From positions 8,735-72,734 of the forward strand of contig JAJRVP010000013.1 in assembly GCA_024277205.1 (NCBI GenBank): a DNA stretch of 64,000 nucleotides, in the 5' to 3' direction. Both the position numbers and the translations under genes were made by a program. Of the stretch, positions 2,777 through 59,131 are shown piece by piece. The notes beneath the pieces were generated by a model that made no database searches, had not been told where the DNA came from, and worked only from the letters and a program-made list of their open reading frames with translations. Numbering within the stretch: position 1 is the stretch's first letter; each line of letters starts with the position of its first letter. Origin of the DNA: an archaeon (GTDB lineage Archaea > Nanobdellota > Nanobdellia > CSSed11-243R1).

Positions 2777-5419
2777 ATGATAGATGATGGGATAACCATA
2801 AACAAGGTATTGAGGGAAAAGGTAGGTTCGATAGAATTTAGAATGCTTTCCCCAGAATTAATTAAAAAAATGGGTGTAGTAAAAGTAGTTACACCAGAAC
2901 TATATGATGCAGATGGTTATCCAATTGATTCTTCTCTTATGGATTTAAAGATGGGAGTAATTGACCCAGGATTAAGATGTAGAACTTGTGGTGGAAAAGT
3001 TAGAGAATGTCCAGGACACTTTGGATATATTGAGCTTGCACGTCCTGTTTTCCACATAAGATATATCCCATTAATTTATGTTTTCTTAAAAAGCACATGT
3101 TCAGATTGTGGTAGAATTCTTTTGCCACAGGTTGAAATTGAAAAATGGCTAGAAAGATTAAGAAATATAAAAAAGATAAGAGGAACTATCAGCAGATTAG
3201 CAATTATCAAAGCTATTGTAAATAAAACAAAGTTAATTAAAAAATGCCCACATTGTGGTGCAAAACAAGAAAAGATAAAACTTGTTAAACCATCTTCTTT
3301 TGTTGAAGGAAATAAAAAATTAACACCTGTTGATGTTCTTGAAAGACTAAAAAGAGTTTCTGACACAGATTCTGAACTTTTAGGAATATCACCAGCAGCA
3401 GGAAGACCAGAATGGATGGTATTAACTCTTTTACCAGTTCCGCCAGTTTCAGTTAGGCCTTCAATAACATTGGAATCTGGTGAAAGAAGCGAAGATGATT
3501 TGACTCACAAACTTAGTGACATAGTTAGAACAAATCAAAGATTATATGAAAACCTTAGTGCTGGTGCACCAGAAATAATTATCGAGGATCTATGGGATTT
3601 GCTTCAGTATCATGTTACAACATTTTTCGCAAATAATATTTCGCAAGTTCCACCTGCGAGACACAGAAGCGGGCGTCCACTTAAAACTCTTGCGGAAAGA
3701 ATTAAAGGAAAAGAAGGAAGATTCAGAAGAAACCTTGCAGGTAAGCGTGTTAATTTCTCTGCAAGAACAGTTATTTCTCCTGATTCTCAATTAGATATTG
3801 ACGAAGTCGGAGTTCCAGAAGTAATTGCAAAAGAACTTACAGTTCCAGAAAGAGTAACAGAATGGAACATAAAAGAATTAAAAGAATATGTTAAAAATGG
3901 ACCAGACAAATATCCAAGTGCAAATTATGTTATAACACCAGATGGAAAACGTAAGGTTATTTCTGATGAAACAAGAGAAGTATTATTAGAAGAATTAGCA
4001 CCAGGATATATTGTTGAAAGACATTTGAAGGACGGAGATATTGTTTTGTTCAATAGACAGCCATCATTGCATAGAATGAGCATTATGGCGCATAAGGTTA
4101 GGGTGTTACCACATAAAACATTTAGACTAAATCTTTGCACAGTAGTTCCATACAATGCAGACTTTGATGGAGACGAAATGAACTTACATGTTCCACAAAC
4201 AGAAGAAGCAAGAGCAGAAGCAGAATTTCTTTTAGGAGTGCAAAATAACATTGTTACGCCAAGATATGGGCTTCCAATTATTGGATGTGTACAAGACCAA
4301 ATTACTGGACTGTATTTGTTGACAAAAACAGAAGATTTATTTTCGCAAAAAGAAGTATCGCAATTGCTTGCACAAGCAAGAGTCACTCAACTTCCAAAGA
4401 AACCAGCTTCAAGAAAAGGTGGAATTAATTATTATAATGGAAAACAAATATTCTCAATGATTCTTCCAGAGGTAGATTATAGGGAAAAATCAAAAACCTG
4501 TCCAAAACACCAACATTGTAAAGACCCAAGATGTAAATATTCAATGGTTGTAATTGAAAAAGGAGAATTAAAACAGGGCGTAATCGATGTTAAAGCAATT
4601 GGACCTGAAGCTCCAAAAGGAAAATTAATTCAAGCTATAATAAATAAATACGGCGACAAAGCAGCAGTTGAGTTTATACAAAAAGCAGCATTGTTAGGTA
4701 TGGCATACCTACAGAAAATTGGGTTTACTACTCTTTTAACAGATACTGATTTGCCAGAAGAAGCAATTAAAGAGATTAAAGAAGCATTTGACTTTGCACA
4801 AAAGAAAATAGATGCATATATTAAAGATTATGAAGAAGGCAAATTAGAAGCATATCCTGGAAGAACAGTTAGAGAAACACTTGAATTCAAAATAATTGAA
4901 TCAATTAACAGAGCAAGAAACAAAACAGGTAGAATTGTAGAAAGACACCTTAAACAAGATAATTATACATTAATCATGGCACAGTCAGGTGCAAGAGGTT
5001 CATTACTTAACTTATCACTTATGTCTGCCTCTGTAGGACAGCTTAGCCTTAGAGGAACAAGAATTAGAAAGGGTTATAGAAATAGAACATTGCCACACTT
5101 TAGATGGGGAGATGTTGGTCCTGCAGCAGGAGGTTTTGTAAGACATTCATACAAAGGTGGATTGACACCAACAGAATTTTTCTTTAACGCAATCACTGGT
5201 AGAGATACAATTATGGATACCTCAATGAGAACACCTAAATCTGGTTATCTTCAAAGAAGATTGATTAATGCACTTCAAGACTTAAAAATTGCATATGATA
5301 ACACAGTAAGAGATGCGTCAGGAAGAATTGTGCAGTTTGTATACGGTGGAGATGGAATTGATGTTTCTAAATCCGATAATGGAAGATTACTTATTCCAAA
5401 GGAGGAAGTAGTCAAATGA
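2777..5419 (+). CDS. rpoA1: DNA-directed RNA polymerase subunit A' (Rpo1N)
   Basis: 880 aa with an N-terminal Zn-binding CRTCGG..C, the [10 protein letters not shown] catalytic aspartate motif, and RNAP largest-subunit clamp/funnel regions. Confidence 0.95.
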
Positions 5420-7268: not shown

Positions 7269-7721
7269 TTGGGATTTGATATGGCTAATAAACCAAGAGG
7301 ATTAAATGCTGGAAAGAAGCTAAGGCAGAGAAGGAAAAAATTCCTTTTTGCAAAAAAGGATTTAGCTAAAATGAAGACTAAGGAATACAAAAAAACAGAT
7401 CCACTCGAAGGTTCTCCAGCAGCAAGAGGAATTGTCTTGCAAAAAATGGAGATAGAAGTTAAACAGCCACACTCAGGTTTAAGAAAGTGTGTTAAAGTTC
7501 AAGTTGCAAAAAATGGAAGAACTATTACTGCTTACGCTGGTTATGGCCCAGGTGCAATTAAATTTATTGATGAACATAATGAAGTTATAATTGAAAGAAT
7601 GGGCGCACCACAAAGAAGAGCTTTCGGAGATATGCCAGGTGTTAAATTTAGAGTCATAAAAGTTAATGGTGTATCAATTAATGAACTTGTAAAAGGAAGA
7701 AAAGAAAAACCAATGCGTTAA
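7269..7721 (+). CDS. rps12: ribosomal protein S12 (uS12)
   Basis: 150 aa, highly conserved (PNSALRKC-like LRKCVKVQ..., KPRGLNAGKKL). Confidence 0.92.
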   Translation: MGFDMANKPRGLNAGKKLRQRRKKFLFAKKDLAKMKTKEYKKTDPLEGSPAARGIVLQKMEIEVKQPHSGLRKCVKVQVAKNGRTITAYAGYGPGAIKFIDEHNEVIIERMGAPQRRAFGDMPGVKFRVIKVNGVSINELVKGRKEKPMR

Positions 7722-7723
7722 CC

Positions 7724-7744
7724 TTTCTCTTTATAAAAGAGAAA
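7724..7744 (+). promoter_or_regulatory. perfect 9-bp hairpin (TTTCTCTTT-ATA-AAAGAGAAA) embedding a TATA-like TTTATAAAAG between S12 and S7
   Basis: Inverted repeat read directly from the sequence; could be an intrinsic terminator-like hairpin and/or an S7 promoter element. Confidence 0.3.
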
Positions 7745-7779
7745 CGTTAGCGAAAGAGAAAATTTTCAGAAAGCAGGGG

Positions 7780-8379
<600 letters not shown>

Positions 8380-8431
8380 TTATAAATTCTTTCTTTTTCG
8401 TGCAGGTTTTTCTTTTTAAGAAAAATGTAGA

Positions 8432-13110: not shown

Positions 13111-14376
13111 ATGGCAGCAAAACCACACATGAACTTGGTTGTAATTGGTCACGTAGACCATGGTAAATCAACAATAGTAGGTAGGATGCTTTTTGAAACA
13201 GGCACAATTACTGAACAGGATATTGAGAGATTGAAAAAAGAGGCAGCAGCTTTAGGGAAAGCTACATTTGAATTTGCATATGTACTTGATGCAACACGTG
13301 AGGAAAGATCAAGAGGAGTTACAATTGATTTGTCTCACATGAAATTCGAAACTCCAAAATATTATTTCACAATTATAGATGCACCAGGACACAGAGACTT
13401 TATTAAAAACATGATTACTGGTGCAGCACAAGCAGATGCAGCTGTACTTGTAGTTGCAGCAAAAGAAGGAATTCAACCACAAACAAAAGAACATGCATTC
13501 CTTGCAAAAGTTCTTGGAATTAAACAATTTATTGTTGCAATAAACAAGATGGACACAGTTGATTACAAAGAGGATGCATACAATTCATTGAAAGAGGAAT
13601 TAATTAAATTCCTTAAAACCGCAGGATTCAAAACAGATGAAATTCCATTCATACCTGTAAGCGCACTTGAAGGTGAAAATGTTACAAAGAAACTTGGAAA
13701 GATGGATTGGTGGAAAGGACCAACTTTGCTTGAAGCACTTGATGCACTTAAAGAACCAGAAAAACCAGTTGACTTGCCACTTAGACTACCAATTCAAGAT
13801 GTTTATTCAATTACAGGAATTGGAACTGTTCCAGTTGGCAGAGTTGAAACTGGTGTTATGAAAGTTGGACAAAAAGTAACATTTGAGCCAGCAAATGTTT
13901 CTGGTGAAGTAAAGTCAATTGAAATGCATCACGAACAAATGCAAGAAGCAAAACCAGGTGACAACATTGGTTTCAATGTGCGTGGTGTAACAAAAGAACA
14001 AATTAAAAGAGGAGATGTAGTTGGACCAGCAGATAAGCCACCAACAGTTGCAAAAGAATTCACAGCACAAATAATTATATTGCACCACCCAACTGCAATA
14101 AGCAAAGGTTACACACCAGTATTGCACGCACACACAACACAAGTTGCATGCAAGTTTAAGGAGTTAAAGCAAAAGCTTGACCCAAGAACAGGTCAAGTAG
14201 CACAAGAAAACCCGGACATGCTTAAAACAGGAGATGCAGCAGTTGTTGTGCTTGAACCACAAAAACCATTAGTGATTGAAAAGAGAAGCGAGATTCCAAA
14301 ACTTTCAAGCTTTGCAGTTAGAGACATGGGAGAAACAGTGGGGGCTGGCTTTGCAATTGACATTGTAAAGCGCTAA
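13111..14376 (+). CDS. tuf: translation elongation factor 1-alpha (aEF-1A)
   Basis: 421 aa, [21 protein letters not shown] motifs. Confidence 0.96.
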
Positions 14377-14377
14377 T

Positions 14378-14407
14378 TTCTTTCTTTTTAATCTCTTTTC
14401 TTTTGGT
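14378..14407 (+). terminator. pyrimidine/T-rich tract after tuf (candidate archaeal oligo-T terminator)
   Basis: tttctttctttttaatctcttttcttttgg immediately after the tuf stop. Confidence 0.3.
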
Positions 14408-14494
14408 AAAGCTTTTTCTTCCTAAGAGAACTGTTTTTTGATAAAGTTTATTAATAAGTGAGGCATATACTATGTAATCTTTTGGGGTGGTAAA

Positions 14495-34764: not shown

Positions 34765-35514
34765 ATGCAAGTCTTAATAATTGATGTTTCTAAATGCCCT
34801 GAATGCAACTCAACTAAGATCCAATTTAATTCTAAGACTCATGAATTATACTGCCAAGAATGCGGCTATGTAATGCAAGATAGAATTCCTGTAATTGAGG
34901 CAAAATATGGAAAAGCTGAAAAGGTATATATTAATCCAAAGGAAAAGAAAATTGCAATTGTAATTAAGGGGATTCTGAAAAGCCCAATTGAGAAAAAGAT
35001 GACTCCTTTTTATGCAGAATTAAAAAAGTTTCGTTTGCCAAAATATGTTGAAGCTGAAGTTATTTCAATTTGCAAGAAATGTGTTGAAGAAAAATTAACT
35101 ATGAGCTATTCAAAGCTAAAGCTCCTTTCCGCCACAATTTATCTAGTTTCAAAAAGAGAAGGAATCCCAATTATGATAAAAGGATTAACCAAAACTTATG
35201 GCGTTGAAAAGTATGACATTTTAAAGGTTGCCAAATTTATTTCTAAGAAATTTAATCTAAAATTGCCAAACGGAGATGTTGAAAATTATATTATTAGAAT
35301 AACAAGTGACTTAAACAAAGAAGGAGAATTAACTCGCGAAGCAATTAAAATCTCTAAAACACTTAACATCTGCAACCCGCTTATAAAAACCGCCGTTGCA
35401 ATTTGGCTTGCTTCTCAAAAACTCAAAATCAAACTCAAAAAATACGAACTCGCAAATGCCTGCGGTATTTCTGAATTGACATTGAGGAGAAATCTGAGGA
35501 AAAGTTTAAATTAA
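34765..35514 (+). CDS. transcription factor TFIIB-like paralog (short, 249 aa)
   Basis: N-terminal Zn ribbon CPEC..x15..CQECG followed by cyclin-like repeats; shorter and more divergent than the canonical TFB at 58208. Confidence 0.65.
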   Translation: MQVLIIDVSKCPECNSTKIQFNSKTHELYCQECGYVMQDRIPVIEAKYGKAEKVYINPKEKKIAIVIKGILKSPIEKKMTPFYAELKKFRLPKYVEAEVISICKKCVEEKLTMSYSKLKLLSATIYLVSKREGIPIMIKGLTKTYGVEKYDILKVAKFISKKFNLKLPNGDVENYIIRITSDLNKEGELTREAIKISKTLNICNPLIKTAVAIWLASQKLKIKLKKYELANACGISELTLRRNLRKSLN

Positions 35515-36958: not shown

Positions 36959-37801
36959 TCACCCTTCATGTTTTGCCTTTGGGGTGTCTTTGAAGCATCT
37001 TTCTTTGTATTCGCAGTATTTGCACATCCAGTTTGATTCTTTGTGAGCTCTTGCTTCTGCTTCTGGAAGTATATTTTCAACTAAGTGCTTGTGCAATTTC
37101 TTAAAGCGCTCAATTATTCTTCGAGCTTCAGCTTCATCATATTTTATTTCAAAAATTTTGCTTTTAAGATTTGTTTTGTCAATATAAAGCAAAATACCAT
37201 TATGGACTCCAGTGAAATGCATGTACAATTGCAGTTGCTGCACATTGTGAGGAGAAGCATTGTTCACCCATTGGATTCCTTTTGTTGATTTTACTTCAAC
37301 AAGATAAATTTTGCCACTTGCTTTTATTTTGATTAGATTATCTATGCGCCCAGATATTAGAAAATCCTCAACTTTCTCCTTAAATGGAAATTCGCTTTCT
37401 AATAATTCAACATCTTTTGTTTTTTCTGATTTAAGAACTTCAACAACAAAGTCGTGGATAATGTCACCCATTTTGAATATTTTTCTCAAGTCGGGGTCAA
37501 TTTCAGAAGGATACTTATAAGAGTACCAAACTTTGCGCATGCACGAGCCAGCCTCAGAAGGATAGTATTTTCCTATGCCTTTTGGCTTTGATTCCCTTTT
37601 TATGTGCTCATCAATGAGCTTGTCAAAGTCTATCACAATATATTTAATATTTACTGTATTTATAATTATTAAGGTGGGGTTCTGAGGTGTTTGATATGAA
37701 TATAAAAAACGTACTGCTTGATTGGAGTGGCACTCTTGTGGATGTTGTTGGATATTTACATCAGATAGACATGAGAATATTTGATGACTTTGGAGTTCCA
37801 A
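36959..37801 (-). CDS. Cas4-like / RecB-family PD-(D/E)xK nuclease with 4-Cys Fe-S cluster signature (DUF83-like); start uncertain
   Basis: N-terminal Cys (SEAGSC), motif II D (GRIDNL), motif III EVK (YLVEVKSTKG), QxxxY (QLQLY) and C-terminal CxxCx5C (CKYCEYKERC); no cas genes or repeats nearby. Confidence 0.6.
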   Translation of the reverse strand: MELQSHQIFSCLSDVNIQQHPQECHSNQAVRFLYSYQTPQNPTLIIINTVNIKYIVIDFDKLIDEHIKRESKPKGIGKYYPSEAGSCMRKVWYSYKYPSEIDPDLRKIFKMGDIIHDFVVEVLKSEKTKDVELLESEFPFKEKVEDFLISGRIDNLIKIKASGKIYLVEVKSTKGIQWVNNASPHNVQQLQLYMHFTGVHNGILLYIDKTNLKSKIFEIKYDEAEARRIIERFKKLHKHLVENILPEAEARAHKESNWMCKYCEYKERCFKDTPKAKHEG

Positions 37802-48539: not shown

Positions 48540-48724
48540 AGCCTCGGGAGGGACTTTCACGCACCCACGGAAATTCTTTCCGTGCACGCTTTCTTTTTAA
48601 GAAAGGGTGCTTTCGAACCCTCGACCCCCAGCTTACAAGGCTGGTGCTCTGGCCAATTGCTCCAACACCTTCTTTTGGTGCAGCTTTTCTTCCAAAGAAA
48701 AGGTGCTAGCTGAGCTACCGAGGC
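48540..48724 (-). tRNA. tRNA-Thr (anticodon UGU) with two introns (D-loop and T-loop)
   Basis: Minus-strand hand fold: acceptor GCCTCGG/CCGAGGC, D-stem GCTC/GAGC, anticodon arm CCAGC-CTTGTAA-GCTGG, T-stem GAGGG/CCCTC; about 50-nt insertions interrupt the D-loop and T-loop. Confidence 0.65.
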
Positions 48725-48797
48725 TTTTGTGTACTTTCCGTACACGCTTTTTCAAAGGGTGTAATTATTTAAATATTTTGATTGTATTCTTATTTTA

Positions 48798-49022
48798 ATG
48801 AAAATAAAACCTTTTGGAACAAGAGATATAATCAGAATTGTTATAACTTTGATAATAACATTGCTTGTTGGCATTTTTGTTGCACCAATTCAATCTTGGG
48901 TTTTAATATTGGCAATAGGAGTTTTAATCTATACTCTTTTACTTGAATTAATTAAATTTTATGCAGGCCTAAAAAATTTGAGAAAGAAGAAATTTGAAGT
49001 GGCAACTATCCAATTCGAATAA
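48798..49022 (+). CDS. small membrane protein (74 aa)
   Basis: Two predicted TM helices. Confidence 0.35.
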   Translation: MKIKPFGTRDIIRIVITLIITLLVGIFVAPIQSWVLILAIGVLIYTLLLELIKFYAGLKNLRKKKFEVATIQFE

Positions 49023-49200
49023 CTTCCCAACCATTGTCTTTTAACCTACATAGATGAATTGCACCACAAACTTCGCAGAAGTATTTTGTTTCTCCAGTTT
49101 TTTTGTTGATAACCATGTATTCTGCATGTTTTCCACACCCAGGACAGCGCGGAATTATACTGACAATTTTTACATCACTCATCCTTTTATTCACCCACAC
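49006..49200 (-). CDS. small Zn-ribbon protein (64 aa)
   Basis: CPGCG...x19...CEVCG. Confidence 0.4.
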   Translation of the reverse strand: MWVNKRMSDVKIVSIIPRCPGCGKHAEYMVINKKTGETKYFCEVCGAIHLCRLKDNGWEVIRIG

Positions 49201-49202
49201 TT

Positions 49203-49727
49203 ATGCGAAACTTAAAATATTTTAAAAACCTTTCTATGGATATGTCCAATGCACAAACTCACTTAATTGTTGGAACATTAACTTGTCTAACACTAGCATT
49301 TTTCTTATACAAATTTGTACATGTTAATTTGCTTGTTTTATTTGCAGGAGTAGTAATTGGGATTATTGCTTCTGAATTTCCAGATATTGACCATCCAAAA
49401 TCATTACCAAGAAAAGTGCTTAGAGGATTAATGCCTGCATTGATATTATTCATTTTTATCTATCTGTTTTTTGCATGGAGAATTTGGACAAAGAATTTTT
49501 TAATGATTTCACTATTTTTTGCAACACCATTTTTAATTATTTTTTCTTATGAATATTTTATACCAAAACATCGGAGAGCAACCCATAAATGGCCTGGAAT
49601 GGCAATGCTAATTGCAGTTACGATTCCACTTGCATCTGCTGTTGGTTTAGGAATTACAAACTTTTTAATTATTGCATCTTTTGCAGTTCTTGGTTTTTCA
49701 ACACACATTCTTTTGGACCACTTATAA
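49203..49727 (+). CDS. membrane-bound metal-dependent hydrolase (DUF457/YdjM-like), paralog of 34241-34702
   Basis: Multi-TM with FPDIDHPKS motif matching LPDIDHPNS in the paralog. Confidence 0.55.
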   Translation: MRNLKYFKNLSMDMSNAQTHLIVGTLTCLTLAFFLYKFVHVNLLVLFAGVVIGIIASEFPDIDHPKSLPRKVLRGLMPALILFIFIYLFFAWRIWTKNFLMISLFFATPFLIIFSYEYFIPKHRRATHKWPGMAMLIAVTIPLASAVGLGITNFLIIASFAVLGFSTHILLDHL

Positions 49728-50072
49728 TGGGGTTTTCTTGAATTTTTTTAAGAAGTTTTTGTCTTTGTTAAGTCTGATAAACACAGCTAGAATGTGCTTG
49801 CAAAAACCACGCTTTATGCTATGCCAATGGCAGTCACAGTTCCAAGATTCTGGAAATTTTTTTTCACTAAAATATATTACAGAATGGGTCGTATCATATG
49901 TTTTGTCTATGCAGGTGAATCCAATATGTTTTATTGTGATGTAGTCAACTTTGACATCTTCCCACATTCTTTTTGCAGAACTATAACTATTTTTGCTTAT
50001 TTCTTTATTGGATTCTATGCTTTCAATTGAAAGAAATTGGATGTCCATAATCAAAAGTAGTTTTTGCCCCAA
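49722..50072 (-). CDS. SWIM zinc-finger protein
   Basis: CDCHWHSIKRGFCKHILAVF fits the SWIM CxCxnCxH signature. Confidence 0.6.
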   Translation of the reverse strand: MGQKLLLIMDIQFLSIESIESNKEISKNSYSSAKRMWEDVKVDYITIKHIGFTCIDKTYDTTHSVIYFSEKKFPESWNCDCHWHSIKRGFCKHILAVFIRLNKDKNFLKKFKKTPL

Positions 50073-50215
50073 AGCACTATTAATGTAATTCCAAGTATGC
50101 TCATTGCAAAGATTTTTTGTAATGCGCCAACTTTCCCAATAACAGGGATGCTTAATACAGAAAATGCAGCTAAAACTCCAAGTGCAGAACCACCAATATC
50201 TTTTAAACTAATCAT
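50051..50215 (-). CDS. small membrane protein (54 aa), translationally coupled
   Basis: Unlisted ORF MISLKDIGGSALGVLAAFSVLSIPVIGKVGALQKIFAMSILGITLIVLWGKNYF; its ATG overlaps the upstream stop as ATGA. Confidence 0.35.
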   Translation of the reverse strand: MISLKDIGGSALGVLAAFSVLSIPVIGKVGALQKIFAMSILGITLIVLWGKNYF

Positions 50216-51138
50216 TTTTCACCACCTTTTATTCTTTTGATTCCAAGTTCTTCATAAATTGAGTTAACATCCTCTTCAGACATGCTTTTAACAATCCTCT
50301 TTATTTTTTGGATTACTTCAGATTCAGGATAAACTTTTTTCTTTCCCTTTTCCAATTTTTTTAGTTTATCTTTTTTAATCAATTCTTCAAGCATTTTAGT
50401 ATCAATGCCTTCACCCCTTAATGTATTCATCATCTCTCTTAAAGTATAGCCGCGAGACAATCCAAGTTTTAAATATGCTCTTAAATCCTCAAGGGTGGCT
50501 TGTTTTTTCATTATTTTTTTCAAATGTTTTGAATAAATATAAAGTATTAATGCTGCTGAGATTGCAATAACTAAAATTATTAAAACAGGAGTTATATCAT
50601 ATACTTCAACTTCTATTTTTGGGCAGTCAGCAGGACAGTTAAATGATGTTTCACCCAACTCACATATTTCATTACCGCAGAATATTACACCCTCACTTGG
50701 CAGAACACTCATTATAGATGTGCTTGTATCAAAGCCACCAGGATATGTCCAAACACTTATGAATTCTTGGCTTCCTGGCTCTTTTGCTTTTAGAGTATAA
50801 ACAAGTAAAACTTGCGATGGACCTAACCCATCTCTAAAACTCCAATGATATGCTGTTCTTGTTTTTCCCTGATATTGGTAAGAAGGCAAGGATTCAAGAA
50901 CAACAGCATCTTCATCATAATTATACACTTTCCATTCCTCTATTTCCCAACCAAGTGGAACAAATTCAATTACATCAAATGCATTAATTTGTTTTGTTGA
51001 TTTGAATTCAATAGAAACATTAACAGTGTTTGTTACTTCAACAGCACTTGGCATCTCTCTTTTGAACATTACATCTCCAAATGCAATTGGAAGCGCAACT
51101 ATTAAAATCAATGTTATCAATAATAAACGTTTATTCAT
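50212..51138 (-). CDS. single-pass membrane protein with secreted Cys-containing ectodomain and basic cytoplasmic tail
   Basis: Signal peptide, ectodomain with CGNEICELGETSFNCPADC, TM helix (VLIILVIAISAALILYIY), K/E-rich tail. Confidence 0.5.
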   Translation of the reverse strand: MNKRLLLITLILIVALPIAFGDVMFKREMPSAVEVTNTVNVSIEFKSTKQINAFDVIEFVPLGWEIEEWKVYNYDEDAVVLESLPSYQYQGKTRTAYHWSFRDGLGPSQVLLVYTLKAKEPGSQEFISVWTYPGGFDTSTSIMSVLPSEGVIFCGNEICELGETSFNCPADCPKIEVEVYDITPVLIILVIAISAALILYIYSKHLKKIMKKQATLEDLRAYLKLGLSRGYTLREMMNTLRGEGIDTKMLEELIKKDKLKKLEKGKKKVYPESEVIQKIKRIVKSMSEEDVNSIYEELGIKRIKGGEK

Positions 51139-51180
51139 GAATTAATCAAATAGTTGTATTCTTATAAATATTTAGAAAAA

Positions 51181-51401
51181 TGTCGGGGGTGGGACTTTCA
51201 AGCACCCACCAAATTTTTCTTTTGGTGCAGCTTTTCTTTTTAAGAAAAGGTGCTTTTGAACCCACGATCACCTGGTCATGAGCCAGGCATTCTACCAGAT
51301 TGTTCAACTTTCCGTCAACGCTTCGGCGAGACTTCGTCTCGACGCCCAGCGACAGAGTCGCTAGGTGCGCGAAGCGGAAAGGGTTGCTAAACTACCCCGA
51401 C
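51181..51401 (-). tRNA. tRNA-Met (anticodon CAU, elongator-like) with a large D-region intron and a T-loop intron
   Basis: Minus-strand fold: acceptor GTCGGGG/CCCCGAC, anticodon arm CCTGG-CTCATGA-CCAGG, T-stem GTGGG/CCCAC, discriminator A; a GC-rich insertion of about 80 nt in the D region and the conserved T-loop insert of about 50 nt. Confidence 0.55.
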
Positions 51402-51466
51402 ATATTTTGTTATTAAAAAGCATTATCAAAGAATGTTTATAAAAGTTGTTAAAAAATAGGTTTATC

Positions 51467-51784
51467 CTAAAAAGATTTTTTATAGAACTCATTTAATTCA
51501 CGTCTCCATATCTCAACATAACCATTTGCCTCAAGACAATTAAGAATAATCTCTGTTGCTATGCTGGCGTGTCCTAATGAATACGTGTTATTTATGATCT
51601 CTTTAGCACGTTCTTTTCTTGAATATAAATAAAAGTTTATAGCATCTACATTCCTTTCAAGCATCTTCTTTTGTAATTCCAAAATAATCTCATCTAACGT
51701 GTTTTTTTCAAGAAGGAGAGCCTTGTTGTTCTTGTCAACCAAATCTATGAATCTCCTTGCAGTTTCCATCGCAACTTTTTCCAT
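51467..51784 (-). CDS. hypothetical protein (105 aa)
   Basis: ORF only. Confidence 0.4.
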   Translation of the reverse strand: MEKVAMETARRFIDLVDKNNKALLLEKNTLDEIILELQKKMLERNVDAINFYLYSRKERAKEIINNTYSLGHASIATEIILNCLEANGYVEIWRRELNEFYKKSF

Positions 51785-51855
51785 GATTGTGAGAATTAGA
51801 TTTGTTTTAAAAAGATTTATTTAGTTAGAAATATATGTTGGGAAGTACATAAGAA

Positions 51856-52263
51856 TCAAATCAAATGTAATTTGATTTTTTCTGTGATTTCTCTGAACTT
51901 TTCAGATGTGTATGTTTTTGTTTTTTTTATGTTCATTAAATCCTCAAGAGAGTCGCTTTTAAGTTTTGGAAGAAGCCAGACATGAGCATGTGGAACCTCA
52001 TCTCCCAAAACATAAGAGAGAATTTGCTCGGTGCCAAAAGCTTTTCTTATTGCTTTAGCAATCTTTTGGACGACTTTGTAGTATTCGTCTATGTTTGGCA
52101 CATCCCAAACCCACTGAATATGTTCTTTTGGAATCACTAAAACATGTCCTTCTGTAACAGGACGGATTGAAAGAAAGGCAAGAAATTTTTCATCTTCATA
52201 AACTTTGTAAGCGTTTAGTTCTCCTTTTACGATTTTGCAGAATGGGCATTCAATTGTCTTCAT
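51856..52263 (-). CDS. HIT-family hydrolase
   Basis: Histidine triad (VPHAHVWLLP); N-terminal CPFC; 135 aa. Confidence 0.8.
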   Translation of the reverse strand: MKTIECPFCKIVKGELNAYKVYEDEKFLAFLSIRPVTEGHVLVIPKEHIQWVWDVPNIDEYYKVVQKIAKAIRKAFGTEQILSYVLGDEVPHAHVWLLPKLKSDSLEDLMNIKKTKTYTSEKFREITEKIKLHLI

Positions 52264-52816
52264 ATTCTACACCCATCTTCTCAAACAATAATCGTGCGTA
52301 TCCTTTATGGATTATATTTTCCTTTGGCAACTTAAGTTTTTCTATTAATCTAAGAATTCTCTTTTTTGCTTCTTCGCTGTTGTCCGAAATTAATTCAAAC
52401 TCAACAAAATCACCAAGCCCTTCAATTTTATCAAGGTTCACTTCAAACTCATTAAGCTTTCCTTGCTCCCTTGTTTTTACTTTTGAAATAACTTTTACAA
52501 AGCCAAGCTTTTCAAGAATTCTCTCCATGTCTTTTTTGTTTGAGATTTCAGTTTCATATTCTTCCCAAACTCCTTGCTTGCCTGTGAGCAATTTCATAGT
52601 TAGAATTGATTTTTCATTTTCGCTGCGAATTCTGAGAAGAAAGGAGCCAGCTTTTTGTAACTCCATTTCTTTTCCTTTTTGCTTGTAATAGTTATCAACT
52701 TGCTTTTTCGGGCTTCCAAATTTTGCGCCAATAGACTCTAGTTTCTTTTTCACTTCTTCCAAATTTTCAACTTTAACTTTTACTTCGATTTCCAAATTAT
52801 CCCTGTTTGTATCCAA
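52250..52816 (-). CDS. CYTH-domain protein (triphosphate tunnel metalloenzyme / CyaB-like)
   Basis: N-terminal E-x-E-x-K motif (LEIEVKVKV) and later LRIR; 188 aa; overlaps the neighbouring genes at both ends. Confidence 0.7.
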   Translation of the reverse strand: MDTNRDNLEIEVKVKVENLEEVKKKLESIGAKFGSPKKQVDNYYKQKGKEMELQKAGSFLLRIRSENEKSILTMKLLTGKQGVWEEYETEISNKKDMERILEKLGFVKVISKVKTREQGKLNEFEVNLDKIEGLGDFVEFELISDNSEEAKKRILRLIEKLKLPKENIIHKGYARLLFEKMGVEYEDN

Positions 52817-53294
52817 TTTTTCTTAAGAATTCTTTGCGCTCTTTAATTTTGTTTTCATCTTCAATCCCTTTTGGCTTGTTGCCATCAATCACACCAAGAA
52901 TTCCTTTTCCTTGCTCTGTTTCTGCAACAATTACTTCTGTTGGATTTGCAGTTGCTGTAAAAATTCTGCACACTTCGGGTATCATTTTAATCGCATTTAA
53001 AATATTGATTGGGTATCCATTTCGCAAGAAGATTATAAATGTATGCCCAGCCCCAATTTTGTATGCTTGCTCTGCTGCAGCTTTTTCTAGTTCTTCATCA
53101 TTACCTGTATGTCTTATTAGGCAATCTCCAGATGCTTCTACAAAACCAATTCCAAATTTTATATTTGGATTGCAATTGACAATTGCTTCGTATAAGTCTT
53201 CAACAGATTTAATAAAATGTGTTTGTCCAAGAATTAGATTAACATCTTGGGGAGATTCAATTTTTACAATTTTGATTTCCATTTGTTTCACCAA
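52797..53294 (-). CDS. archaeal adenosine-specific-kinase-family (PF04008-like) protein
   Basis: 165 aa; pattern IKIVKIE...GQTHFIKSVEDL...GIGFVEASG...HTGNDEELEKAA...GAGHTFIIFL resembles that conserved archaeal family, called from memory. Confidence 0.45.
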   Translation of the reverse strand: MVKQMEIKIVKIESPQDVNLILGQTHFIKSVEDLYEAIVNCNPNIKFGIGFVEASGDCLIRHTGNDEELEKAAAEQAYKIGAGHTFIIFLRNGYPINILNAIKMIPEVCRIFTATANPTEVIVAETEQGKGILGVIDGNKPKGIEDENKIKERKEFLRKIGYKQG

Positions 53295-53388
53295 ATCTAC
53301 AAAACCATTTTCAATATTAATATTTTCCTTATTTAATAACTACTACTACATAGTAGCATTTATAAATAAGAGTTGTTCTTAGTCAAGT

Positions 53389-53775
53389 ATGAACTCTGCT
53401 CACAAATACACAGAAAAAAGGTATTTGGTTTTAAGCAGAGATGTTATTACTAAATTTGAACCTTGGATGGAAAGAATAATTTCTGGATCTAATTATGATA
53501 AAATTTTGCTCGTAGGCAATGAAGCAATAGATTATAAAAGAGTAGAAATGGTTGGGGAGGATATAAGTAAATCCTTGGATTTAAACAGTTATTCTTTTTC
53601 AGCATCCCCAAACGGGTTTACAATAGGCGGGAATTATTTTTTATTGACAAATCCCTATTTGATTAAAATAAAACCTGACACACTTACTCTTGAAATTATC
53701 AAATATAAAGAAAAGATAGATATTATTAGAGGAGAGGTTGTTAGAACTCTTGAACAAGAAGTAATTTACCCATAA
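53389..53775 (+). CDS. hypothetical protein (128 aa)
   Basis: ORF only; convergent with and overlapping the NTase 3' end. Confidence 0.4.
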   Translation: MNSAHKYTEKRYLVLSRDVITKFEPWMERIISGSNYDKILLVGNEAIDYKRVEMVGEDISKSLDLNSYSFSASPNGFTIGGNYFLLTNPYLIKIKPDTLTLEIIKYKEKIDIIRGEVVRTLEQEVIYP

Positions 53776-54398
53776 TTTTTGATTTGTTTTTTATATACCT
53801 CAACCAGTTCTTTAAAACCATTTTTATTGAGCATATTAAGAGATTCGTTAAACCCCTCATCCCCAAGAATTCCTCTTAAGTATAATACATCAGATATGTG
53901 TTTTGGGTTGTTCCCCTTTCTACATGCTGCAAGTTTGAATCCAAGCCAAATCCATGGGGCTGGCAATTTTAAACCTTGGTAATGCATAGTTCCTTTTTCA
54001 TCAAATAGATAATCTTCAAGTTTGGCTGCATATTTTGGATCTATGCTTTCAAAAATACCCTTCATAAAAAATTCTACAGAGCCGTCGAAATCATCCAATC
54101 TTTTAAAATAAGAACCTTCTGGGGTAACACCAACGCCACAACCAAGATTAGAAAGAAGTTTGTCTTCTAATTTCTCATCATCAGAGAAGATATCCACATC
54201 CCCAGTATCCCTAAAATTGTCTATTTTTACTCCTGTAAAAATGTCTGCATAGCCTACTAATGCAAAGCTTCCAAAAACAATCATGTTCCCATTTTGATAT
54301 TCGCATTTAAGAGATTCAACTACTCTTTCAAATACAGGATAGCTTACTTTCAATCCCATAGTATACTCTTTTAACTCCATATTTATAAATGTTTTCAT
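53766..54398 (-). CDS. minimal nucleotidyltransferase (Pol-beta superfamily) domain protein
   Basis: hG[GS] motif (IVFGSFALVG) followed by the DxD (GDVDIFSDD) signature; 210 aa. Confidence 0.6.
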   Translation of the reverse strand: MKTFINMELKEYTMGLKVSYPVFERVVESLKCEYQNGNMIVFGSFALVGYADIFTGVKIDNFRDTGDVDIFSDDEKLEDKLLSNLGCGVGVTPEGSYFKRLDDFDGSVEFFMKGIFESIDPKYAAKLEDYLFDEKGTMHYQGLKLPAPWIWLGFKLAACRKGNNPKHISDVLYLRGILGDEGFNESLNMLNKNGFKELVEVYKKQIKNYG

Positions 54399-54415
54399 TT
54401 TTTAGTGACTACAGA

Positions 54416-54596
54416 TGGACCTGTCGGGACTTTCAAGCACCCACGAAAGTTTTCTCTTTCGTGCACGTTTCTTTTTAAGAAGGGTGCTTTTGAACCCGAA
54501 ACCTCCCGCAATCAGGAACCTCTTCTTTTAGTAAAGCTTTTCTTTTTAAGAAAAGGTTGTGCCAAGCGGGTGCGCTACCAATTGCGCCACAGGCCC
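54416..54596 (-). tRNA. tRNA-Ala (anticodon GGC) with a canonical anticodon-loop intron and a T-loop intron
   Basis: Minus-strand fold: acceptor GGGCCTG/CAGGTCC giving the G3:U70 Ala identity pair, discriminator A73, D-arm GCGC-AATTGGTA-GCGC, anticodon stem CCCGC/GCGGG with loop TTGGCA interrupted after position 37, T-stem TCGGG/CCCGA with an insert of about 50 nt in the T-loop. Confidence 0.65.
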
Positions 54597-54597
54597 A

Positions 54598-54969
54598 TCA
54601 TACTTTCCAAAAGTAACATTTTTCTTTTTTGCATCTTTCACATCCAAGATCTTCTCTTTTTGTATTGAATAAAGCCCATCTCTCTTCTTTTCGGATGTAT
54701 ACATGCATTCCACCTGAACATTTGTAGACGAAATAGCCGCCCATTTTATTGTAATTTTTGCTGAAAAGTATATCCACTCCATTTATTGTCATTTCAATTG
54801 TTTCTGAGTCATGTTTTTCTACATTTGTTTCAAATGCGTCATCTAATATTTCTGCAATATCTTTCTTTTTTTCATCTGCTCCTTTGTTATTTAGTTCCCT
54901 TTTTTGTTTACATAACGGACAGACACCCCATTCCATTAATGTTCCGCATTTTGGACAAAATAAACTCAT
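54598..54969 (-). CDS. Zn-ribbon protein (123 aa) with RpoM/TFS-like N-terminal ribbon
   Basis: N-terminal CPKCG...CPLC and a C-terminal Cys cluster (CERCKKEKCYFW); sits between two tRNA genes. Confidence 0.5.
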   Translation of the reverse strand: MSLFCPKCGTLMEWGVCPLCKQKRELNNKGADEKKKDIAEILDDAFETNVEKHDSETIEMTINGVDILFSKNYNKMGGYFVYKCSGGMHVYIRKEERWALFNTKREDLGCERCKKEKCYFWKV

Positions 54970-54982
54970 TTTATCACCAAAA

Positions 54983-55099
54983 AGGGCCTGACGGGATTTG
55001 AACCCGCGACCTGCTGGTTAAGAGCCAGCCGCTCTGACCAGACTTTGCCAACCCTTTTCTGTAAACGCTTTTTCCAAAAGGGTTTTGAGCTACAGGCCC
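54983..55099 (-). tRNA. tRNA-Lys (anticodon CUU) with a D-loop intron
   Basis: Minus-strand fold: acceptor GGGCCTG/CAGGCCC, D-stem GCTC/GAGC with a hairpin insert of about 40 nt (AACCCTTTT...AAAAGGGTT), anticodon arm GCTGG-CTCTTAA-CCAGC, T-arm GCGGG-TTCAAAT-CCCGT. Confidence 0.7.
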
Positions 55100-58207: not shown

Positions 58208-59131
58208 ATGAAAATGGGTAAAAAAATTTCTAAATGTCCTGAATGCGGTTCTAAAAAGTTATACTGGGACAGAAGTCGTGGAGAAGTTATTTGCAAGGCA
58301 TGCGGCTTTGTAATTGAAGAGAGACTGATTGATTTTTCACAGGAATGGAGAGAATTTGACTCTGAACAAGGAGAATCACGAAGAAGGGTTGGCTCACCAC
58401 TAACCTTTACAAAACATGATAAAGGTTTGTCTACAAAAATTGGTAAGGCTGGCGACTTAACAAAAATGACACCATCTGAGAGAAGAATGTATTACAGGAT
58501 GAGAAAATGGCAAACACGAATTTCCACTCCTATTGAACGAAATTTAAAATTTGCATTAGCAGAACTAAAAAGAATTGCAAGTTTTTTAGATGTTCCAAAA
58601 ATTGCAGAAGAAGATGCTGCCATGATATACAGAATGGCTGCTGAAAAAGGATTAGTTAGAGGAAGAAGCATGGAATCTGTTGTTGCAGGAGCTCTTTATG
58701 CAGCTTGCAGAAGACATGGTGTGCCACGAACCCTTGATGAGATATCCCATGCATTTCCACTTGATAAAAAAGAAATTGGAAAAACATACAGATTTATCTG
58801 CAGAGAATTAAGAATTAGAATTTTACCAACCTCACCACAGGATTATGTACAAAGGTTTGCATCTGAGCTGAAATTAAAACCCAAAACAGTTTCAAAAGCA
58901 GTTGAGATAATCAAAAAAGCGAACAAACTTGAGATAACAAGTGGAAAAGGTCCAATGGGAATTGCAGCAGCAGCTCTTTATGTTGCAGCATTGCTTTCAG
59001 GTGAAAAGAAAACACAAAGAGATGTTGCAGATGTTGCAGGTGTAACAGAAGTTACAATAAGAAATCGTTACAAAGAACTTTTAGAAAAACTAAAGCTTGA
59101 GGATCAAATAAAGAAAATTCGTGAGAAATGA
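58208..59131 (+). CDS. tfb: transcription initiation factor IIB (TFB), canonical
   Basis: N-terminal Zn ribbon CPECGS...CKACG, B-reader/linker, two cyclin repeats; 307 aa. Confidence 0.92.
   Translation: MKMGKKISKCPECGSKKLYWDRSRGEVICKACGFVIEERLIDFSQEWREFDSEQGESRRRVGSPLTFTKHDKGLSTKIGKAGDLTKMTPSERRMYYRMRKWQTRISTPIERNLKFALAELKRIASFLDVPKIAEEDAAMIYRMAAEKGLVRGRSMESVVAGALYAACRRHGVPRTLDEISHAFPLDKKEIGKTYRFICRELRIRILPTSPQDYVQRFASELKLKPKTVSKAVEIIKKANKLEITSGKGPMGIAAAALYVAALLSGEKKTQRDVADVAGVTEVTIRNRYKELLEKLKLEDQIKKIREK

Follow-up and report, generated by a model that had tools for sequence, protein, structure and literature searches.

How functional tRNAs can be obtained from genes that are interrupted in the D loop, the anticodon loop and the T loop, and where the interrupting sequences come from, are the questions raised by four tRNA genes on contig JAJRVP010000013.1 of an archaeal genome assembly (GCA_024277205.1). 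The genes lie on the minus strand between positions 48540 and 55099 of the 64,000-nt stretch of DNA that was analysed (the window), and they contain seven insertions of 42-87 nt, located at 14/15 (Lys), 15/16 (Met and Thr), 37/38 (Ala) and 59/60 (Ala, Met and Thr). Judged from the sequence, all four genes, which belong to a DPANN archaeon, are very probably functional, and their transcripts would contain seven introns of the bulge-helix-bulge (BHB) type. This reading is carried by the gene structures, the BHB geometry of the junctions, the complementarity of each intron to its own host exon, the conservation of the exons, the homology of the introns and the turnover of their positions among relatives. 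The four genes are organized as follows.

55099-54983, minus strand: tRNA-Lys(CUU) gene; exons 55099-55086 and 55043-54983; intron 55085-55044 (42 nt, 14/15, D-loop).
54596-54416, minus strand: tRNA-Ala(GGC) gene; exons 54596-54560, 54510-54489 and 54429-54416; introns 54559-54511 (49 nt, 37/38) and 54488-54430 (59 nt, 59/60).
51401-51181, minus strand: tRNA(CAU) gene, elongator Met or Ile2; exons 51401-51387, 51299-51255 and 51194-51181; introns 51386-51300 (87 nt, 15/16) and 51254-51195 (60 nt, 59/60).
48724-48540, minus strand: tRNA-Thr(UGU) gene; exons 48724-48710, 48656-48612 and 48553-48540; introns 48709-48657 (53 nt, 15/16) and 48611-48554 (58 nt, 59/60).

The initial annotation had placed four minus-strand tRNA genes at these outer coordinates, which was borne out by direct reading and by in-silico splicing. 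The identities Thr(UGU), Ala(GGC) and Lys(CUU) that it had assigned agree with those given by ARAGORN for the spliced sequences, the G3:U70 pair and A73 that it had recorded in tRNA-Ala are both present, and its account of the number, size and place of the insertions in each gene (D-loop, T-loop and 37/38) held, the exact sizes being those listed above. Its tRNA-Met(CAU) stood as regards the anticodon, while the isotype could only be narrowed: with G1:C72 and A73, this tRNA may be an elongator Met or an Ile2 tRNA, the initiator being excluded because of the G1:C72 pair. In all four genes the exons are collinear on one strand within 117-221 bp, and in none of them do exons lie at separate loci or in permuted order. 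TATA-like boxes are found upstream of the tRNA genes and are conserved in relatives; that of tRNA-Thr is located at about 48776-48765.

On the raw sequence, ARAGORN and Rfam reported a single tRNA, a malformed tRNA-Lys at 54982-55055 (minus strand) with three acceptor mismatches. Rfam run in permissive mode gave two more tRNA fragments, both below threshold, within the Ala and Thr regions, and the match in the Ala gene extends across its first intron. After in-silico splicing, ARAGORN returned full-length tRNAs with the predicted anticodons for all four genes; each spliced product forms a perfect cloverleaf, that of tRNA-Lys being 75 nt long. When segments of the same lengths were excised at random and ARAGORN was rerun, Ala, Met and Thr rarely yielded tRNAs; for Lys the control says nothing, as the malformed call is made in any case. 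Three of the four genes are overlooked by standard bacterial-style tRNA finders, which mis-model the fourth, and since such genes escape them, genomes of this lineage appear short of tRNAs unless BHB-aware tools are used.

Splice junctions were scored against the archaeal BHB rule, in which the 5′ exon is closed by one 4-nt strand of the central helix plus the opening two bases of a 3-nt bulge, and the intron by the 4-nt complement of that strand plus two bulge bases. The threshold for a BHB was set at three or more of the four central-helix pairs combined with 3 bp or more in the inner helix. Mapping the junctions to BHB motifs, which the initial annotation had proposed as a check, gave a fit to a BHB or relaxed BHB in every case: the threshold is reached by 7/7 window junctions, compared with 3% of 400,000 site pairs drawn at random within the window, and the stricter combination of 4/4 pairs with an inner helix of at least 6 bp is found at four of the seven and at 0.03% of random site pairs. 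The central helix has all four pairs in five introns, including that at 59/60 of tRNA-Ala, and three of four in Lys 14/15 and Ala 37/38. Inner helices measure 3-7 bp, with 7 bp at the Lys junction, and the outer helix at 37/38 and 59/60 is the 5-bp anticodon or T stem. Minimum-free-energy folds are consistent with the outer and inner helices, and in that of Thr 15/16 two bulges enclose a GCUC/GAGC central helix. In the central helix, the strand supplied by the intron covaries with its partner in the host exon, being GAGC opposite GCTC in the Thr D stem and GAAC opposite GTTT in Met, and anticodon-loop introns carry the host-matched strands CCTG, GGTG, CAAG, GAGG or GAAG. The introns are short and non-coding, with a longest stop-free stretch of 28 codons.

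This geometry suggests a route to mature tRNAs. In the pre-tRNA, the last bases of each intron would pair with those four bases of the exon that immediately precede the 5′ splice site, and the intron's own ends would form the inner helix, so that the two splice sites would come to lie in 3-nt bulges 4 bp apart. The resulting structure would be a relaxed HBh′ form in the D loop and hBHBh′ at 37/38 and 59/60, with the outer helix provided by the anticodon or T stem. By analogy with the established archaeal pathway, EndA would cut both bulges and RtcB would join the exons, with the intron released, probably as a circle.

Comparison with relatives supplies an independent view of the exons. The window has a GC content of about 32%, and its only long, tRNA-like GC-rich islands are these four loci. 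Its gene content is archaeal, with split rpoB, rpoA1/A2, L30e, NusA, S12, S7, aEF2 and aEF1-alpha, and further with S10, TFB, S8e, Trm1 and Alba. The closest relatives are metagenome-assembled genomes named 'Nanoarchaeota archaeon' (GCA_021162365.1) and 'Nanobdellati archaeon' (GCA_027007025.1), Nanobdellati being a DPANN kingdom, and on this sequence evidence the host is identified as a DPANN archaeon. Syntenic loci were found through homologues of the adenosine-specific kinase encoded between the Met and Ala genes, with 75-92% amino-acid identity, and the loci of relatives compared with the window are labelled L001, L004, L005 and L007-L010. The syntenic loci contain the same four tRNAs in the same gene order, with introns largely at other sites, as follows.

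Lys introns: window, 14/15; L004, L005 and L009, 37/38; L008, 30/31 and 59/60; L007, no entry.
Ala introns: window and L004, 37/38 and 59/60; L005, 59/60 (90 nt); L009, 37/38 (158 nt); L008, 59/60; L007, no entry.
Met introns: window, 15/16 and 59/60; L004 and L005, 8/9; L009, 15/16; L007 and L008, 59/60.
Thr introns: window, 15/16 and 59/60; L004, 30/31 and 37/38; L005, L007 and L008, 37/38; L009, 15/16 (contig ends).

Each intron site of the window is uninterrupted in at least one orthologue, which there matches the spliced product. The Lys D-arm is contiguous (GCTCAGTCTGGTCAGAGC) in L004, L005 and L009, the Met D and T arms are contiguous in L004 and L005 and identical to the spliced product of the window, and Thr is contiguous at both window intron sites in L004, L005 and L008. 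Because the orthologues are contiguous at these points and match the spliced product, the splice boundaries are confirmed independently of RNA data. Across 19 spliced tRNAs from the window and its relatives, standard pairs occupy 399/399 cloverleaf stem cells, and 15 of the 21 stem pairs have changed on both sides in a compensatory manner; when the partners were shifted by one column as a control, pairing fell to 53%. This intact pairing, together with the compensatory changes, indicates that the tRNA genes are under selection for function and are not decaying pseudogenes. All tRNAs reconstructed by hand in the relatives' loci carry an intron, up to three in the tRNA-Arg(TCT) of L001 (14/15, 37/38 and 59/60), and default ARAGORN without intron search made one call in about 122 kb of relatives' DNA, at 1881-1956 of L007, inside an intron-bearing tRNA-Met. 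The BHB threshold is reached by 18/24 further introns scored in relatives, and the six that fall below it have at least 3/4 central pairs and an outer helix of 3-5 bp, with an inner-helix run of only 0-2 bp.

A side observation concerns the anticodon loop of tRNA(CAU), which reads CTCATGA (window 51268-51262, minus strand) and has G at position 37, as in L004, L005, L007, L008 and L009. An A37 is expected for ANN-decoding tRNAs, and the Lys and Thr tRNAs of the window have A37, whereas the G37 of tRNA(CAU) is kept across relatives while the anticodon stem covaries.

The introns themselves belong to one sequence family. They share a core composed of ACC(C), a pyrimidine tract hairpinned with a purine tract, C(G)TGCAC and (G)GAAAG, and these cores are 70-93% identical across tRNAs for Thr, Met, Ala, Lys, Arg, Gly and Ser at sites 14/15, 15/16, 30/31, 37/38 and 59/60. 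Among themselves, the window's three T-loop introns have 85-90% identity, and they share 84-90% with the T-loop introns that tRNA-Arg and tRNA-Gly carry in other genomes. Identity reaches 93% between the D-loop introns of Lys and of tRNA-Arg in L001, and the core of the window's Met D-loop intron has its match at 37/38 in the Thr gene of L005. D-loop, anticodon-loop and T-loop versions share 70-75% identity. Copies differ in the terminal bases that form the BHB, these being complementary to their own host exon. Over 38 distinct copies, pairing in the core hairpin amounts to 94%, and U-A and C-G pairs replace each other at four positions, in an alignment that was fitted to the model. Short variants keep the sequence while the fold is altered. 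A single hidden Markov model (HMM) or covariance model (CM) of the core recovers all the introns. An exact pattern for the 59/60 intron was found in sequence collections at one genome locus and two metagenome loci, although this pattern is too strict to gauge distribution. A loose regular expression combined with a hairpin descriptor proved too noisy (17 matches against 6.7 expected), and nhmmer and the CM were used in its place. A purine-motif triplex or mirror-repeat reading of the two purine tracts was dropped, because the tracts are mirror-symmetric and direct and mirror repeats are then indistinguishable.

One intron of the window contains an additional structured module, given below, whose homologue, with compensatory changes, is located in an intergenic copy of the element in L010 (about 7905-7950, minus strand).

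51325-51367, minus strand: GC-rich two-hairpin module in the Met D-loop intron, AGCGAC-TCT-GTCGCT and CGAGAC-GAA-GTCTCG, -24.6 kcal/mol.

The core is not confined to tRNA genes. Copies elsewhere were sought with the HMM (nhmmer) and then with the CM of the core, and they lay outside the training set of these models. The following matches were obtained in the window.

8392-8430, minus strand: intergenic copy between the convergent S7 and CTP-synthase genes (CM 40 bits, E 1e-6; nhmmer E 1e-3).
7719-7759, plus strand: copy in the S12-S7 spacer (CM 27.8 bits, E 9e-4).
14398-14436, minus strand: copy downstream of aEF1-alpha, antisense to both flanking genes (nhmmer E 6e-3; CM 23.1 bits, E 0.012; marginal when taken alone).
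48732-48762, minus strand: intron-like copy in the tRNA-Thr 5′ leader, between the TATA-like box and the tRNA 5′ end (ACCCTTTGAAAAAGCGTGTACGGAAAGTACAC; CM 23.4 bits, E 0.01; nhmmer E 9e-4).

When aligned by eye, about 33/38 bases of the copy at 8392-8430 are those of the tRNA-Met T-loop intron core. In L010, a copy after S7 has the opposite orientation to that in the window, and the S12-S7 spacer, 64 nt long in the window, measures 14 nt and has no element. The region of L010 downstream of aEF1-alpha (7700-8120) contains at least four copies together with a duplicated segment that includes the 3′ end of the gene. The Thr leader of the window is 13-14 nt longer than those of L004 and L009, which hold part of the element or none. 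This leader copy was considered as an extra intron and rejected, as inspection revealed no BHB at the leader/tRNA junction. Within the tRNA genes of relatives, the 90-nt 59/60 intron of tRNA-Ala in L005 (9390-9480) is an inverted dimer, in which a forward copy is followed by a reverse-complement one.

Similar introns occur in different tRNAs and at different positions, and the intron position differs between close orthologues, as in transposed intron clusters. The introns are best read from these sequences as a mobile or rapidly turning-over family, comparable to that of Thermoproteales. They would be copies of one short structured repeat, of which only the host-specific terminal bases build the BHB, and this repeat would be gained, lost and moved between tRNAs and tRNA positions on a short evolutionary timescale. 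Spread at the level of DNA is favoured because the core is a dispersed repeat with presence/absence and orientation polymorphism. The most likely route would be DNA-level recombination or insertion, aided by the near-universal D- and T-loop sequences that flank 14-16 and 59/60. The clustering of introns at these sites, within the most conserved segments of tRNAs, hints that the family may spread with the help of recombination across flanks that tRNA genes have in common. Beyond what the initial annotation had described, the comparison thus adds a single homologous intron family, copies of it outside tRNAs, and positions that differ between orthologues.

A broader form of this reading, which we consider plausible though somewhat short of an even chance, is that the family is a genome-wide, non-coding, structured mini-repeat of 35-90 nt that inserts at the DNA level in many contexts and survives in tRNAs only where its ends can build a BHB. 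If so, the splicing endonuclease would act as a mechanism of tolerance for a selfish element, and the intergenic and leader copies would be the same element outside tRNAs. It is not called a miniature inverted-repeat transposable element here, because inspection revealed no consistent target-site duplications or terminal inverted repeats and no transposase was found.

Several observations weigh against the picture of BHB introns spread by a mobile repeat. The D-loop junctions are of the relaxed HBh′ form, without a convincing outer helix, two central helices contain a mismatch, and the three T-loop junctions have one additional unpaired base opposite the 5′ bulge. Neither EndA nor RtcB was detected among the approximately 70 open reading frames (ORFs) of the window by Pfam scans, nor in the fetched loci of relatives. 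The analysis covers the window and the relatives' loci, and intact duplicates of the tRNA genes may exist elsewhere in the genome. As to mobility, two of the three intergenic matches in the window are only marginally significant, and the lack of target-site duplications, terminal inverted repeats and transposase mentioned above counts here as well.

Alternative explanations bear on these same points. The likeness of the introns could stem from selection on a functional intron RNA, protein-binding or regulatory and possibly circular, rather than from mobility, with positions reflecting loss and ancient gain. The core and its hairpin are conserved and covary between genomes at 75-92% protein identity, introns at the same site are as conserved as exons (45/49 bases for Ala 37/38), and the GC-rich module shows compensatory changes, all of which would be expected of such an RNA. 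Against this, copies of either orientation are seen, some of them antisense or in places that look untranscribed, an inverted dimer makes up one intron, and short variants keep the sequence and change the fold. The RUGAUGA/CUGA criterion revealed no C box in any window intron, the single CUGA, in the Ala 37/38 intron, belonging to the BHB strand, and Rfam returned no family, including no small nucleolar RNA, for the window introns. A functional intron RNA would also be compatible with mobility; as an explanation in place of it, we regard it as unlikely, though of real weight.

It is very improbable that the four genes are pseudogenes broken by a dispersed repeat while functional intron-less copies exist elsewhere. 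The inserted repeat does occur in intergenic DNA, and the comparison was confined to the window, with the rest of the genome outside it. However, the exons show perfect conservation, and orthologues differ by compensatory changes in the stems; at the borders of each insertion lies a BHB with an intron strand matched to its own host exon; upstream, promoter-like TATA boxes have been kept; and the tRNAs reconstructed in relatives are also interrupted, a finding that extends to their loci only, since intron-less copies may be present elsewhere.

That the insertions are removed by something else than BHB splicing, for instance self-splicing or trans-acting RNases, or are tolerated through use of the unspliced tRNA, has very little to recommend it. 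It could draw on the failure to find an endonuclease gene in the window and on the relaxed D-loop motifs. The insertions, at 42-87 nt, are nevertheless far below the size of group I or II ribozymes, and no Rfam match to a group I or II intron was obtained for the window introns. The 3-4-3 geometry that EndA recognises (PMC3239211) is present at 7/7 window sites, and at least 3/4 central pairs form at all 24 further sites in relatives. For tRNA-Lys alone, the intron-less model at 54982-55055, with the upstream exon a coincidence, can be dismissed as scarcely credible and was rejected in favour of the two-exon model with intact acceptor and D arm: although it is the only above-threshold call on the raw sequence (38.2 bits), it has three acceptor mismatches or a 3-nt deletion and a defective D stem and borrows intron bases as acceptor, whereas with exon 55099-55086 the acceptor stem has 7/7 pairs and the D arm is canonical, with the same sequence as in the uninterrupted D arms of L004, L005 and L009.

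The picture of BHB introns drawn from one mobile or rapidly turning-over family has several precedents. In Thermoproteales, tRNAs contain up to three BHB introns at non-canonical sites with relaxed HBh′/hBH motifs, and near-identical introns in different tRNAs and positions have been described as 'large-scale intron transposition', an inferred recent gain at the DNA level (reviews PMC4090602 and PMC4033280, citing Sugahara 2008 and Fujishima 2010). The window shares with them multiple introns per gene, non-canonical sites, similar introns across tRNAs and positions, relaxed motifs and an apparent recent gain at the DNA level. In contrast to the hyperthermophilic crenarchaeal hosts, the host here is a mesophile-like, AT-rich DPANN archaeon, and its enzyme is probably not of the crenarchaeal (alpha-beta)2 type. 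One family supplies essentially all the introns seen here, and core copies are located in leaders and intergenic DNA, of which neither review (PMC4090602, PMC4033280) makes mention for Thermoproteales.

The initial annotation had held that multiple introns at non-canonical sites are known mainly from Thermoproteales and a few deep archaeal lineages, which is right for Thermoproteales and understates DPANN (PMC3239211 and PMC5829648). ARMAN-2 (Ca. Micrarchaeum) has a high rate of tRNA disruption, introns at 59/60 and an epsilon2 endonuclease, by which cleavage at 59/60 has been obtained in vitro (PMC3239211). It resembles the present case in its DPANN affiliation and in introns at 59/60 and other non-canonical sites, whereas the 59/60 intron of its pre-tRNA-Cys is 13 nt long with a relaxed hBH motif, compared with 58-60 nt, a three-way junction and both bulges here. 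Within the same broad lineage as the window, PMC5829648 associates increased disruption of tRNA genes in DPANN archaea, including Pacearchaeota and Woesearchaeota, with an alpha4 EndA carrying an extra loop, L3; in the portion consulted it tabulates gene types only, and describes no intron family, positional turnover between orthologues or non-tRNA copies.

In Caldiarchaeum subterraneum, heterogeneity at the tRNA-Thr locus results from the integration of a 1.8-kb mobile element encoding a recombinase (PMC3293823). Intron gain on a short timescale and partial duplicates of a tRNA 5′ end near the gene, as in L004 and L005, are points of likeness, while the repeat here is 35-90 nt long and non-coding, with no recombinase nearby. 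Split and permuted tRNA genes, reported from Nanoarchaeum equitans and several Crenarchaeota (PMC3218864), likewise depend on BHB motifs for assembly from interrupted genes; in contrast, the exons here are collinear at one locus, without trans-splicing or permutation.

Multi-intron tRNAs, 59/60 introns and heavy disruption of DPANN tRNA genes have thus already been published, and the present case extends them to a lineage that has received little study. What is possibly under-described is the derivation of essentially all introns seen from a single family and the occurrence of family copies outside tRNAs. The locus and its syntenic relatives show very fast turnover of intron position inside one family, and since positions differ (8/9, 14/15, 15/16, 30/31, 37/38 and 59/60) at 75-92% protein identity, the lineage would offer a natural time series for the gain of archaeal tRNA introns. 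Such a comparative series could show how endonuclease-spliced introns spread and make intron gain testable, and it could also serve to test the proposed co-evolution of DPANN splicing endonucleases with tRNA gene disruption.

Some further observations were made at these loci. Short direct duplications of the tRNA 5′ end are present in relatives just upstream of tRNA-Met (GTCGGGGAA-GTCGGGGTA) and of tRNA-Thr (GCCTCGGTA, 33 nt, GCCTCGGTA), at 12120-12140 of L004 and at 14030-14050 and 16510-16565 of L005. In L004 and L005 the repeated segments, GTCGGGG and GCCTCGGTA ahead of Met and Thr, look like the partial tRNA copies that integration events leave behind. The upstream Thr copy in L005 was considered as exon 1 and rejected: the inner helix has only 2 bp, there is no outer helix, and the segment is assigned to the leader. 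Its apparent four-pair central helix is an artefact, in which TCGG was scored against its own duplicate and self-pairs through G-U. The 158-nt 37/38 intron of tRNA-Ala in L009 (about 4012-4170) is composed of approximately 2.6 tandem copies of a 43-nt unit (GTATCGGAACCCGCAGGAGGTTCTAATACATTGGCTGCTGGAA), and a copy of the element in L010 lies directly after the aEF1-alpha stop codon and is followed by T8, a possible terminator context.

Phage and plasmid records contained no similarity to the introns, and only the tRNA-Met exon, in its anticodon arm, was matched by phage tRNA-Met genes. Elsewhere in the window, a second, shorter TFB-like protein is encoded beside the full TFB, and a Cas4-like PD-(D/E)XK nuclease is encoded with no CRISPR array nearby (34765-35514, plus strand; 58208-59131, plus strand; 36959-37801, minus strand). 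Between tRNA-Lys and tRNA-Ala lies a cysteine-rich ORF of 123 amino acids (54598-54969, minus strand) that has no Pfam match. Its stop codon ends 2 nt ahead of the tRNA-Ala 5′ end, and because of this short distance tRNA-Ala may be co-transcribed with the ORF.

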